64,000 bases of DNA from an uncultured archaeon (GTDB lineage Archaea; Asgardarchaeota; Heimdallarchaeia; Heimdallarchaeales; Kariarchaeaceae). The position numbers were made by a program, and so were the translations under genes. Within the stretch, counting starts at the first letter, position 1. Every line of letters starts with the position of its first letter. Location of the stretch: the NCBI GenBank assembly GCA_964645535.1, contig CAZYCQ010000009.1:1-64000 (forward strand). The letters are read 5' to 3'. Below are positions 12 through 4,551 of the stretch, in pieces. The notes under the pieces were generated by a model, which searched no databases, was not told the origin of the DNA, and was given only the letters and a program-made list of their open reading frames with translations.

Positions 12-1226
12 TCAATAACGAGTATCTCGCTTTCTTTCCTGTTTTCTTCTGATTAAAAATGCAGTTACTGGTGTATATATGAAGGGTGCATTGGTTTTTT
101 CATTGTTTGATCTGATTTCATTGCCAACGAGAAGAGTTATTGGTTCTGATTCTTGGATTCCTCCTTGGGCTTCCACTGTTATAACAATGGTGTAGTTGCC
201 AATTTGCTCTGCCAATAGATTTAAAGAAAATGTAATGTTCTGCAATGGACTCAACTCACTGATTTGGAATCTCGAACTGTTATTGACCATATTTAACCCC
301 GAAGGGAGAAAAACTAGAAGTGTGACATTTGTGGCTTTTGAATTTCCAAGATTTGTCAGGACAAATTTTAAGCTAAATGGTTGCTCCTGCTTCGCAATCT
401 CTGGTACCGAAATGTCTCGTATCTTCAAATTTGGTTTTTCGACACTTACGATCCATTCTGAAAAGCTTGTTGTGTTTGCAGTGATTGTATTGGCTGAGGG
501 ATCAATTATTCCATCCACCTGTTCGGTATTTCCATCATCTATTTTAAGCAATTTAATCCGATTTTCGTCAGCATTAACTCTGTCGATTTCGTTCTGACTA
601 TAGGTTATTTTGATGGTTCCTTTCTTGATGGGCTCTGTTGAATTCACTTCAATAATGAACTTGTCTGACACTGCAAGGAAATTTACTGGTGCGACTACCT
701 CTGCAAGTGGTTGTCTGGTGATCGTGATACTTATGGCTCCAGAAAGTGTTAAATTCAATCTAAAATTTCCTTCTTCAGAAATAAGTGAAAAATTTCCTGT
801 GGGTAGATCGATTGGCCGCCCATAACTGATATTGATTGGAACTGCTGATGGGTCTATGATCTGGATTTGCTCATAACCGCTTGTTGGTTTTCTATCTTCT
901 AGAGATCCTTGCACATAGAGTTCCAGCCAATATTTGATCACACTCCCGTTGTCTTGTCCTTGGAATACATATTGGAATTGTGTACCTCCTAAACTTTGCA
1001 TCATGGCTCTTGTTTCATTTTGGTCATTGATGGAAAATATGATTGTGATGTTATCAAACCCTTGGGGAAGAATATTCAACGTTGCCAAAACAATTATTTC
1101 CACGCCAGGGAATGGGTTGATTGGTGTATGGGAATAGTTTGCGATTATGGGGTCTAAACCCTGCGATTCCGCTGTTCCAAGCATCGATAAGATTAAAAGG
1201 ATGATAAGAATGTATTGGTGCCTCAC
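12..1226 (-). CDS. Secreted/surface protein: Ig-like N-domain, one PGF-pre-PGF/HFS-type domain (motif degenerate, TTSFS), CARDB/DUF11-like domain, C-terminal sorting-type tail
   Basis: Signal peptide MRHQYILIILLILSMLG; PINISYGRP...ITANTTSFSEW matches the repeat unit of the neighbouring gene; LTNLGNSKATNV is CARDB-like; ends NAPF-hydrophobic-RRK. Confidence 0.75.
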   Translation of the reverse strand: MRHQYILIILLILSMLGTAESQGLDPIIANYSHTPINPFPGVEIIVLATLNILPQGFDNITIIFSINDQNETRAMMQSLGGTQFQYVFQGQDNGSVIKYWLELYVQGSLEDRKPTSGYEQIQIIDPSAVPINISYGRPIDLPTGNFSLISEEGNFRLNLTLSGAISITITRQPLAEVVAPVNFLAVSDKFIIEVNSTEPIKKGTIKITYSQNEIDRVNADENRIKLLKIDDGNTEQVDGIIDPSANTITANTTSFSEWIVSVEKPNLKIRDISVPEIAKQEQPFSLKFVLTNLGNSKATNVTLLVFLPSGLNMVNNSSRFQISELSPLQNITFSLNLLAEQIGNYTIVITVEAQGGIQESEPITLLVGNEIRSNNEKTNAPFIYTPVTAFLIRRKQERKRDTRY

Positions 1227-1277: not shown

Positions 1278-2846
1278 CTAATTCTTCCTTTTTCTAAATA
1301 AGGTTGCAACCATAATCCCTATTGCTCCAAACAGAAAGAGGACAGAAACCTCAGAGTTTGCAGAAGATTCTCCGTCAGTCTGACCTACTACTGTCCATAG
1401 ACTGAAATGAGTTGTGTTCGCATAAACTGCATTGTTTTCAACCCATGAAGGCACTCCTCTCCATTCCTTTGCACTCTCGTCAAAATATCGAAATTCTAAT
1501 GTATTGAGGTTTATTCCCTTTAGGTCAAGGTTTTCAAGAGGTAGGGTTAGGGTTGCATCGATCGAGGTCGATGAATCATTGACTGTAATGTCAATAAATA
1601 TCCCGGCAGATTGGAGGCCTTGAGGAAGTTCCCCTGCTGGATTTGATGTAAATTCTTCAATAGTGATTTCAACACCTTCTCCTGGAATCACCGCAACCAT
1701 AATTCCTGAGGGCGTTACCAACTCAACTCGTTCTCCTGGACGAACTGCAACTGGTTTTCCGGGTTGAATTTCCAAAGGTGCTCCTGGTTGAGCGATAGGA
1801 GTTGCTGGATTGGTTGGAATCTGCTGTATTTCTTCCTCGCCAGTCGCTGTCCAAACACTAAAATGTGTAGTGTTTCCATAAACCATTTTATTTTCCAAAT
1901 CTACCCATGACGGCACAGCTTCCCAAAGTCCAGTACTTTCATTATAGTATCTCATTTCAAGAGTTTCGGGATTGGTTCCATTGAGCATGGTTTCATTGTA
2001 TGGAACTGCAATAGTTGCGTTAAGTTCCACTGAAGTATCATTTGGCTCAATTGAAAGATAAATCCCCAGAGATACAATTCCTTGTTGCAATTCCCCTGCT
2101 GGATTGGATGTAAATTGATCAATTGTAATTTCTAGTCCTTCTGCTGGAGTGAGAGAGACTGAAATTCCAGATGGTGTTATCAGTTCTACTTCTTGACCCG
2201 GTTGAATGGATACCGGATTCCCAAGTGTTACATTGATTGGAATTCGGGTATCATTGACTGGTGGTTCTGTTGGTGGTTCTGGCGGTTGGGTTCCATTGGC
2301 TGTAAACGTCCAGATGCTGAAATGTGTGGTGTTTCCGTATACTACCTTATTTTCCAAATCCACCCAAGATGGAACTGCATCCCAGAGTCCGGTACTTTCA
2401 TTATAGTACCTCATTTCAAGGTCTTCTTCATTCGCTTCTCCAAGATTAGTTCCATTATATGGTACTGCAATAGTGGCTTCTACCTCAACATTGGTATCAT
2501 TAGGTTCTATTGAAAGGAAAAAGTCAAATGACACTAGACCTTCTTGGATAGGTCCAGCAGGATTAACGTCAAATTCCTCCATGGTAATTTCTAAATTGTC
2601 TCCTGGAATGAGACTGACTGAAATTCCTGTGGGTGTTACCAATTCTACGCTTTCATTTCCTGCAACGCTAACAGGGGTTCCATATGTTACATTGACAGGA
2701 ACACTAACGTTCCCGGGAAAGTTCGGGTTTTCTGGAGGTGTTTCCATAACGACTTTCTCGGCTTTGATATTGGATGGTGCTGCAAGCATCATTCCTAAAA
2801 AAATCATAACTCCAACAGTGGAGGTCACAAGTTTCATGAATTTCAT
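1278..2846 (-). CDS. Cell-surface glycoprotein with three tandem ~150-aa domains each ending in NTTHFSxW; C-terminal anchor
   Basis: Signal peptide; three copies of ELxTPxGI.V...NPAG...RY(Y/F)xES...W..VPSWV...NTTHFS; Pro-rich linkers; many N-x-S/T sequons; TM helix + RKRKN. Confidence 0.85.
   Translation of the reverse strand: MKFMKLVTSTVGVMIFLGMMLAAPSNIKAEKVVMETPPENPNFPGNVSVPVNVTYGTPVSVAGNESVELVTPTGISVSLIPGDNLEITMEEFDVNPAGPIQEGLVSFDFFLSIEPNDTNVEVEATIAVPYNGTNLGEANEEDLEMRYYNESTGLWDAVPSWVDLENKVVYGNTTHFSIWTFTANGTQPPEPPTEPPVNDTRIPINVTLGNPVSIQPGQEVELITPSGISVSLTPAEGLEITIDQFTSNPAGELQQGIVSLGIYLSIEPNDTSVELNATIAVPYNETMLNGTNPETLEMRYYNESTGLWEAVPSWVDLENKMVYGNTTHFSVWTATGEEEIQQIPTNPATPIAQPGAPLEIQPGKPVAVRPGERVELVTPSGIMVAVIPGEGVEITIEEFTSNPAGELPQGLQSAGIFIDITVNDSSTSIDATLTLPLENLDLKGINLNTLEFRYFDESAKEWRGVPSWVENNAVYANTTHFSLWTVVGQTDGESSANSEVSVLFLFGAIGIMVATLFRKRKN
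1395..2700 (-). repeat. Intragenic triplication of a ~456-459 nt domain-coding unit
   Basis: HFS codons at 2316-2324, 1857-1865 and 1401-1409; near-identical DNA blocks such as gtactttcattatagta(c/t)ctcatttcaag in copies 1 and 2. Confidence 0.85.
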
Positions 2847-2985: not shown

Positions 2986-4551
2986 TTATATGGTATAACT
3001 GTCGGTAGTTTCCACATTTTTTGTGGCATCGTACGGACTTGAGCTTATGACGTCCCTCACGGAAACAACATGTGTCCCTTCGGTAGCTGGATCAACCTGA
3101 AAATTGGCAATTCCCGTTGAATCGGTGGTTGCAGTCATTATCTTACTAGTTCCATCTGGGAACTCCCAAAGAATTTCAACAGTAGCTCCAGCTACCACAT
3201 TTCCATCTTGATCCTGTATTAAAATAAATGCATCCAGTCTATAATGAGGATTCTTTCCTCGAATGTAATCCAAGTCCCATGTTATTGACTGAACGTAAAT
3301 ATATGATGAATTTGTAGTTTCTTCCATTGTAGTTGCAGAAACTGGATCTGATAGATCTCCTTCATTTCCACTTGTGTCCACCGCGCTGACTTGATACGTA
3401 TATGTGGTATTTGCATCAAGTCCGATATCTGAATATGACGTAGTTGAACTGGTGTCTATAAATATCCCGTCCCTGTAAATTTTGTAATATGCAAGATCGT
3501 TTTCAGTATTTCCATCCCATCCTAAGTCAATCTGACTCGATGAAGCTGTTGTTGCAGTTAACCCTGTGACTTTTGCTGGAGGTGTGGTGTCATCTGATGT
3601 AGATGTTATATCAATCACTGCATCAACAGAGTAATGATCCGATCCTGTGTCTGCTGTGGGAGTGTCTCCAACAGTCGAGGAAATGAAATTATCTAGAGTA
3701 AAATACTGATTGGCTATAAGGAAGTCAATTCTTCCGTCTCGATTATTTGCTTGGTGACCATATGTGTACCCAGGATCTGCGGGATTCAATTCTCTAAAAA
3801 TATCAATCCAACTATGTATATTAGATGATGAAGATCCATAGGTGGGATCATCTGGGCGAACCATCATGGTCATCGGACCCCATCCCAAGTCATCGCTGTC
3901 GGGCGCCAAATTTGGATCTTCCACATCTATTGGCGAAAATGAATTGAGATCTCCTGCATAAATGATCGGCACATCTCCCAAACTATCCATGTAGTTTATA
4001 ATGCCTTCCTGTTGCTTATTCCTTTTTTGTTCGTTTTCTGGATTCCCTGCACAACATTTTAGGTGAGAAGCAATGACATGCACATAAAACCCACCAATGT
4101 CAACAGTCACATCGAAAAAATCGTGGGAAACGTCGAAAACAGTTCCATCGTCAAGAATAACTTCCGGGATCTGGGTTACATTAATGATGGGAAACCTTGA
4201 AAACACCGCTTCTCCTGAAGTTTCATATTCAATATTTTGTGTTGTCACACATTGGTATGGATCTTCAGTCGAAAAAAACTGGTTTAATTCATCACAGTAC
4301 TGGTTAAGGAGTGCATTGTTGTTGTCGTCCCATGCTCCAGTCTCAATAAAGACTGCAATGTCCGGATTTTCTTCCTTGACTACCTGTATCCAATCTGGAT
4401 TTTTTCCAGATTCTTCAATATTATAGGTCATAACCTTGAAAGGTTCACTATTCGCTGCATGCGTTTCTCCAATAGGTGAAAATTGCACCATTCCTATAAC
4501 TAGAATGATTAGGATTATCCTTTTCAGGAAAAATGACTTCTGTCGCATCAT
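2986..4551 (-). CDS. Secreted endonuclease/exonuclease/phosphatase (EEP) family protein with fibronectin type III and C-terminal Ig-like domains
   Basis: Signal peptide; KVMTYNI, GDLNS, RIDF and SDHY EEP motifs; PPAKVTGL...W...Y.IYRDG...Y.YQVSAVD FN3 pattern. Confidence 0.85.
   Translation of the reverse strand: MMRQKSFFLKRIILIILVIGMVQFSPIGETHAANSEPFKVMTYNIEESGKNPDWIQVVKEENPDIAVFIETGAWDDNNNALLNQYCDELNQFFSTEDPYQCVTTQNIEYETSGEAVFSRFPIINVTQIPEVILDDGTVFDVSHDFFDVTVDIGGFYVHVIASHLKCCAGNPENEQKRNKQQEGIINYMDSLGDVPIIYAGDLNSFSPIDVEDPNLAPDSDDLGWGPMTMMVRPDDPTYGSSSSNIHSWIDIFRELNPADPGYTYGHQANNRDGRIDFLIANQYFTLDNFISSTVGDTPTADTGSDHYSVDAVIDITSTSDDTTPPAKVTGLTATTASSSQIDLGWDGNTENDLAYYKIYRDGIFIDTSSTTSYSDIGLDANTTYTYQVSAVDTSGNEGDLSDPVSATTMEETTNSSYIYVQSITWDLDYIRGKNPHYRLDAFILIQDQDGNVVAGATVEILWEFPDGTSKIMTATTDSTGIANFQVDPATEGTHVVSVRDVISSSPYDATKNVETTDSYTI

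Follow-up and report, generated by a model that had tools for sequence, protein, structure and literature searches.

An archaeal surface protein with three tandem domains resembling the self-cleaving GAIN_B and ZU5 modules

What might a surface protein do if it consists of little more than three copies of a domain that looks built to cut its own chain? This question is raised by a gene in a stretch of 64,000 nucleotides (positions 1 to 64,000 of contig CAZYCQ010000009.1, GenBank assembly GCA_964645535.1; referred to here as the window) from an uncultured archaeon of the family Kariarchaeaceae, within the Heimdallarchaeia of the Asgardarchaeota. The gene is an uninterrupted open reading frame (ORF) on the minus strand, 1278..2846, and its product has 522 amino acids (aa) and a mass of 57 kDa. 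In an initial annotation, which had been made from the DNA letters alone, it was proposed that three tandem domains of this protein each end in a His-Phe-Ser (HFS) autoproteolysis motif of the kind found in GPS and ZU5 domains. We find that the best overall explanation is a membrane-anchored surface protein composed of three self-cleaving MAIN domains, which would be microbial kin of GAIN_B and ZU5, and we give this reading a probability of roughly 0.68.

GAIN-type self-cleaving domains act as the mechanical switch of animal adhesion G-protein-coupled receptors (GPCRs) and polycystins, and prokaryotic 'ZU5 autopeptidases' had already been mentioned in earlier comparative-genomics work. It was only in 2026 that such domains were recognized in microbes, where a lone copy serves as the release joint that connects a large cargo to the cell wall. 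According to a bioRxiv preprint of May 2026, GAIN_B-like domains occur widely across bacteria and archaea; the authors call them MAIN, for Microbial Autoproteolysis INducing (Brogan & Rudner, 2026; 10.64898/2026.05.12.724683). The domain of Bacillus subtilis YfkN and several others are cut between the Phe and the Ser of HFS, as determined by Edman sequencing; replacement of the Ser by Ala abolishes the cut, replacement by Thr restores it, and the two products co-purify (Brogan & Rudner, 2026). If our reading is correct, the same joint is present here in a series of three, with nothing attached to it, at the membrane of an archaeon whose group is the nearest to the eukaryotes.

Architecture of the protein and fold of the repeat

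The three tandem repeats comprise 145-150 aa each and are joined by short Pro-rich linkers; repeat 1 is 64% and repeat 3 is 51% identical to repeat 2, and 55 columns are invariant. The features that the initial annotation had listed were recovered: every repeat is closed by the motif Y(G/A)NTTHFSxWT (three of three, with HFS at aa 175-177, 328-330 and 480-482), and all three contain the conserved W...VPSW element, with VPSW at aa 158, 311 and 465, approximately 17 residues upstream of the His. In each copy an NTT sequon directly abuts the His, and the whole protein contains 18 N-x-S/T sequons and no Cys. The last of the motifs indeed stands just before the membrane tail, the third HFS being 17 residues away from a transmembrane (TM) helix of 18 hydrophobic residues, which is followed by a cytoplasmic tail of 5 residues; a tail of this size leaves no obvious route for inward signalling. 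The spacing between the signal peptide and repeat 1 is about 11 residues and there is therefore no cargo domain, as had also been claimed. A Pfam scan of the 522-aa protein likewise detected no further domain.

The AlphaFold2 model of repeat 2, for which an alignment of 50 members was used, reached a predicted local distance difference test (pLDDT) score of 95.1 and a predicted template modelling (pTM) score of 0.87 and shows a 12-strand beta-sandwich with one short helix. The residues T-H-F-S occupy the turn at domain positions 132-135, which connects the penultimate strand (126-131) with the final one (136-143), and HFS precedes the last beta-strand as in GPS motifs. When the model was compared with 48,161 representative PDB chains using the fold-search program VIA-align, the top 17 chains included 10 GAIN and 6 ZU5/FIIND structures. 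Subdomain B of the BAI3 GAIN domain (Z 10.2, root mean square deviation 2.9, 121 aa) and the ZU5 domain of ankyrin (Z 10.2, 9.7 and 9.1) scored highest, followed by the GAIN domains of CD97 (Z 9.7 and 9.2) and CELSR1 (Z 8.8), the FIIND of CARD8 (Z 8.4), the GAIN domains of GPR110, GPR126, GPR56 and GPR97 (Z 8.1-7.2), the FIIND of NLRP1 (Z 7.2), the GAIN domain of Latrophilin-3 (Z 6.6) and UNC5b (Z 6.4). The autoproteolytic domains of Nup98 and Nup145 were found at Z 4.6 and 4.2, and unrelated glycosidase accessory domains appeared from about Z 6 downwards. Foldseek, run against the whole PDB, ranked ankyrin ZU5 first (E 5e-4, TM-score 0.62), then the GAIN domains of CD97 and BAI3, UNC5b and NLRP1. 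The best matches in both searches were exactly the GAIN_B and ZU5 folds that had been predicted, and at the level of the model we consider this structural reading to be right. It anticipates a family that had been published only months before.

The three repeats share with the published MAIN domains the fold, the position of HFS in the last turn, and secretion together with an adjoining C-terminal anchor. The cargo, which is a feature of the typical family architecture and not a property of the domain itself, is missing. Based on the model, on sequence and on analogy, the repeats are probably MAIN-type domains, for which cleavage would be expected.

Conservation of the HFS turn and sequence links to other families

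The three motifs in this one gene are copies of one duplication and do not count as independent observations; their conservation in homologues is the test. A word-indexed search returned 39 relatives, all of them hypothetical proteins of Heimdallarchaeota, Hodarchaeales or Promethearchaeota with two or three repeats each, and (T/D)HFSxWT closes nearly every one of these repeats, even at 26-30% identity. A profile built from the three repeats matched 1,143 proteins at E <=0.001 among 1.84 billion cluster representatives. In an alignment of 50 diverse homologues, which are 22-62% identical to repeat 2, as few as four columns are at least 90% conserved, namely L101, W113, H133 and S135, two of which are the His and the Ser of the motif. 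The 184 best relatives have 302 full domain ends, of which 265 carry H-x-[ST]; in 200 cases this is HFS, with HLS, HFT, HLT and HMT next in order. Orthologues from other genera retain HFS in all three turns. In many of the two- and three-module relatives with a PGF tail (P0018-P0036) a Cys stands four residues before the His (YCNTTHFS), where GPS motifs also have one of their cysteines (CxCxHLT). The orthologue is distributed patchily: a search of the order with the entire 522-aa sequence detected it in 7 of 47 genomes. For the domain itself, the corresponding figures across the phylum are 38 of 201 sampled genomes and 21 of 59 genera. Both counts include many incomplete genomes.

The sequence comparisons point in the same direction as the fold. 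The three-repeat profile matched an adhesion GPCR of the catfish Tachysurus vachellii (XP_060742127.1, P0064) with an E value of 2.5e-15, which is a sum over six stretches, and in each stretch HMT was aligned on HFS and the preceding Trp was aligned as well. Pfam recognizes five GPS motifs (8.6e-38) and a 7tm_2 domain in this protein; the motifs belong to a tandem array with a repeat length of about 300 aa that precedes 7tm_2, an animal case of serial GPS/GAIN-like modules. A broader family profile gave 22-27 bits per fish domain over nearly the whole domain, and when it was searched against all PDB sequences the three best matches were adhesion GPCRs (ADGRF1 at E 0.009; ADGRB2), with HLT or HLS aligned on HFS. 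The expected correspondence with the HLT, HLS and HMT of GPS motifs was seen in these sequence alignments. Two prokaryotic relatives pass Pfam cut-offs, one for GPS (27.8, cut-off 22.5) and one, P0088, for ZU5 (30.2, cut-off 21), and one of the 50 alignment members matches Pfam ZU5 at E 0.0058; a Pfam scan of these 50 members yielded no common family. The profile also reaches surface proteins of bacterial type with SLH domains or type IX secretion system (T9SS) tails that carry HFSxYA, for example P0088 at E 9.5e-11. The Protein Atlas yielded unnamed clusters only, and its ZU5 cluster (0.85) is no more than a lead.

We also considered whether eukaryotic GAIN domains have a special affinity to the Asgard copies, and dropped this idea: many prokaryotic domains reach 40-60 bits or higher, and single fish GPS domains score 17-27 bits. 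As judged by these scores, prokaryotic MAIN domains appear far closer to the archaeal repeats than animal GPS domains do, and we found no support for a descent of eukaryotic GAIN from such Asgard domains; the finding alone is no proof that eukaryotes inherited GAIN from Asgard archaea. The eukaryotic hallmarks of GAIN, paired cysteines and a helical subdomain A, are absent from the protein, which has no Cys and whose repeat is modelled as a beta-sandwich alone. Two entries from EukProt, P0039 and P0075, assigned to the cryptophyte Rhodomonas salina from transcriptome data, contain T(T/N)HFSxWT with domain scores of about 40 bits and could be real eukaryotic genes or contamination; one Rhodomonas salina protein of the two falls into the same 90% cluster as a metagenome protein.

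The locus and the alternative explanations

The features of the locus are compiled in Table 1. The neighbouring ORF starts 51 nt downstream of the 522-aa gene on the same strand, and its product has a MAIN-like domain of its own, a paralogue with another residue in place of the motif's His; the N-terminal domain of this product was modelled poorly (pLDDT 55-70, with 4 sequences). The pair formed by the triple-MAIN gene and this neighbour is kept in four genomes of two genera. Within the genus, Ser or Glu takes the place of the neighbour's His (TSFSEW here, KSFSEW and TEFSEW in congeners), and the more distant genome G043 keeps SHFSEW. The number of modules also differs among close relatives: in the congener G045 the syntenic locus (L010:1444-2085) encodes a single module, in a protein of 213 aa (P0043) that is most like repeat 3, and the genome G044 has three modules there. 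Cargo-free proteins among the 184 best matches comprise 35 with one module, 49 with two and 12 with three.

Table 1. Coordinates of the 522-aa gene, its predicted domains and motifs, and other features of the window
Feature	Position	Strand	Basis or remark
Whole gene, 522-aa surface protein	1278..2846	-	ORF reading; signal peptide, three MAIN/GAIN_B-like domains, TM helix, basic tail
Signal peptide MKFMKLVTSTVGVMIFLGMMLAAPSNIKA, aa 1-29	2760..2846	-	Cleavage point after IKA by direct reading, no prediction program
MAIN-like domain 1, aa 41-183	2298..2726	-	272.6 bits to repeat profile
H175-F176-S177, predicted self-cleavage site 1 (between F and S)	2316..2324	-	Motif reading
Pro-rich linker 1 NGTQPPEPPTEP	2262..2297	-	Sequence reading
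MAIN-like domain 2, aa 196-345 (modelled copy)	1812..2261	-	Profile and AlphaFold2 model
H328-F329-S330, predicted self-cleavage site 2	1857..1865	-	Turn between the last two strands of the model
MAIN-like domain 3, aa 353-497 (membrane-proximal)	1356..1790	-	Repeat comparison and profile
H480-F481-S482, predicted self-cleavage site 3	1401..1409	-	Last motif ahead of the TM helix
C-terminal anchor, TM helix VSVLFLFGAIGIMVATLF (aa 500-517), then RKRKN	1281..1349	-	Sequence reading; Loki-CTERM below threshold
Downstream neighbour, 404 aa	12..1226	-	Signal peptide, N-terminal beta domain, paralogous MAIN-like domain, CARDB, TM anchor
MAIN-like domain of the neighbour	438-848	-	26% identity; E 6e-7 (protein), 1.6e-7 (profile)
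S-F-S in place of H-F-S in the neighbour	459-467	-	Motif reading
Heimdallarchaeosortase	9510..10244	+	NF045528, 220 bits, cut-off 130; 6.7 kb from the 522-aa gene
Upstream secreted endonuclease/exonuclease/phosphatase-family enzyme with fn3 and Ig-like domains, no anchor	2986-4551	-	Pfam 2.7e-12

Several points weigh against three self-cleaving domains and have to be set beside the evidence above. Cleavage of the three archaeal copies is argued from analogy, and the sequence link to the bacterial MAIN domains is indirect and runs through SLH- and T9SS-type proteins. The link to the fish GPS domains is a sum of weak stretches, the best of which reaches 18.8 bits. The 522-aa protein itself gave no match to Pfam GPS (PF01825) at E 1 or to Pfam ZU5 (PF00791), and nothing significant in an NCBIfam scan. 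It is not obvious what a protein without cargo would release, and a module number that varies from one to three among close relatives suits a simple spacer as well as a serial fuse. Finally, not every GAIN domain with a consensus site is cleaved, and the GAIN structure of BAI2 in its uncleaved state (8oek) was among the Foldseek matches.

The variable copy number, at this locus and family-wide, the absence of a cargo and the existence of uncleaved GAIN domains would all be in agreement with the idea that the repeats are uncleaved structural modules with a GAIN_B/ZU5 fold, forming a glycosylated stalk or spacer that gains or loses length with the number of copies and in which the HFS turn is kept for folding and not for catalysis; that the neighbour's copy tolerates Ser or Glu in place of the His points the same way. 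However, His and Ser are two of only four near-invariant columns in very diverse proteins, which is hard to explain by folding alone, and nearly all bacterial MAIN domains that have been assayed cut themselves (Brogan & Rudner, 2026). We therefore regard a stalk of this type as possible but unlikely.

A second alternative takes the ZU5 likeness literally. Ankyrin ZU5, which binds spectrin, ties for the best fold match, and the retention of the gene beside a neighbour with a paralogous domain in four genomes would fit an adhesin or receptor whose modules bind a partner, such as the neighbour's product, with cleavage being irrelevant. However, the ZU5 domains of the ankyrin type do not have the conserved HFS catalytic turn that is the hallmark of the MAIN-type family, and binding and cleavage can coexist; we consider pure binding modules to be improbable.

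That the repeat is the catalogued PGF-pre-PGF domain (TIGR04213), which has a similar length (153 positions), a similar end strand (TPGFSPFAV) and weak overlapping matches in two relatives, or that the motif is due to chance or low complexity, is very improbable, given that TIGR04213 finds nothing in the genome (E 0.1) or in the protein (E 1; cut-off 28 bits), that in P0130 and P0173 it is present in addition to the MAIN-like domain, on the C-terminal side of the latter, and that the motif is kept in approximately 1,100 cluster representatives. In these two surface proteins of methanogen type, TIGR04213 lies directly behind the MAIN-like domain (aa 203-355 of P0130 and 1165-1317 of P0173); its end reads TPG(F/Y)SxFAV and lacks the His. 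The likeness to PGF-pre-PGF that was noted in the initial annotation holds loosely for the terminal strand; the domain as such is a separate NCBIfam entry that gave no match to the 522-aa protein. TIGR04213 gave a weak match of 11 bits to the C-terminal half of the MAIN profile, and it may be a decayed MAIN relative that has lost the His.

Three self-cleaving MAIN domains remain our preferred explanation, and the way in which they are held on the membrane can be narrowed down to two options. The anchor tail alone scores 16.9 bits against Loki-CTERM (NF033507; cut-off 19.9), gave no match to Heimdall-CTERM (NF045529) and contains no PGF, and relatives carry PGF or Heimdall-CTERM-like tails; the anchor is either a plain TM anchor or a diverged archaeosortase signal. 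The heimdallarchaeosortase encoded in the window may process C-terminal tails of this type. A genome search with PF09721 (Exosortase_EpsH) missed this sortase at 9510-10244, a false negative. The secreted enzyme encoded upstream recalls the nucleotidase cargo of YfkN. The idea that it serves as a cargo in trans was dropped, as it is not kept beside the orthologue in G043; the contig of G044 ends too soon.

Proposed working and comparison with known systems

By analogy with GAIN and bacterial MAIN domains, we suggest the following working for the protein, which would be N-glycosylated on the cell surface. In each domain the His would activate the Ser, which would attack the carbonyl of the Phe in an N-to-O acyl shift, and the resulting ester would then be hydrolysed, with cuts at F176/S177, F329/S330 and F481/S482. 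This would yield three pieces of about 16.0, 16.6 and 16.4 kDa and leave the TM helix on a 4.4-kDa stub in the membrane. As every cut is placed ahead of the final strand of a sandwich, the pieces would remain associated non-covalently, the N-terminal strand of each piece completing the preceding domain, and the result would be a non-covalent chain hanging from the stub. More speculatively, pulling or shear might break this chain at one of the three joints and thereby shed one to three glycosylated modules, in which case the protein could serve as a breakable, length-adjustable tether or as a sheddable glycoprotein coat and not as a device for the release of an enzyme.

If all three sites are cut, the chain would be held by strand insertion alone and would serve as a simple model, open to experiment, for a mechanical fuse with several steps, for which the locus supplies natural one-, two- and three-module versions and a natural variant without the His for comparison. 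A bolder proposal can be made from the same elements, namely that the cargo-free tandem MAIN protein is a distinct Asgard device, a chain of glycosylated links of about 16 kDa acting as a tunable mechanical fuse or sheddable coat, in which the number of links is varied by duplication and loss and the neighbour's copy without the His acts as an uncleavable partner or receptor. In this full form we find the proposal rather doubtful.

Among the systems with which the protein can be compared, the GAIN_B/GPS domains of adhesion GPCRs and polycystin-1 (PDB 4DLO, 4DLQ and 9MQR; PF01825) give the best fold match. They share the triad of a His, a hydrophobic residue and Ser or Thr before the last strand and a conserved Trp that aligns with the GPS Trp; the profile is in register, and tandem GPS copies occur in one animal protein. 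In contrast to them, the Asgard protein has no helical subdomain A, no GPS disulfides and no seven-transmembrane or other signalling part. The SEA and SEAL domains of mucins and of clostridial RsgI anti-sigma factors also cleave themselves, in a loop between strands, and their products are held together and can be separated by force; however, their fold and motif (of the G|SVVV type) are different, and these folds were not among the matches of the VIA-align and Foldseek searches.

With the ZU5/FIIND domains of PIDD1, NLRP1, CARD8 and UNC5 (PF00791) the repeats share the fold class, whereas those proteins function in cytoplasmic signalling and the Asgard protein would be extracellular and glycosylated and is without a UPA or death domain. 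PIDD1 is cut between Phe and Ser at two HFS sites in a tandem ZU5-ZU5-UPA arrangement, and this two-site cutting is the closest precedent for serial cleavage at HFS within one chain.

The closest counterparts overall are the MAIN proteins, with which the Asgard protein has in common a GAIN_B-like beta-sandwich, HFS in the last beta-turn, secretion and a domain beside the C-terminal surface anchor, in a family of bacteria and archaea. In the typical published architecture a signal peptide is followed by the cargo, which is an adhesion or enzyme part, then by a single MAIN domain and a surface anchor, and the mean mass is 158 kDa; the IgA Fc receptor of Streptococcus agalactiae is a further member of the family (Brogan & Rudner, 2026). 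The structure-based annotation by DPAM labels the MAIN fold as ZU5, and an architecture 'ZU5 ZU5 SLH' is listed in the supplement; the survey drew on RefSeq Select, and in the text and the available portion of the supplementary text there are no Asgard, Heimdall or Loki names (Brogan & Rudner, 2026). Compared with the published proteins, which average 158 kDa and have an N-terminal cargo and one domain, the Asgard protein is small (57 kDa) and cargo-free and has three modules that are predicted to be cleavable, and its anchor is a TM helix or an archaeosortase-type tail as opposed to a sortase, SLH or cell-wall anchor. The kind of domain is already known; what is new is its cargo-free serial layout, the variable number of modules, the partner with a copy lacking the His and a host from the Heimdall group.

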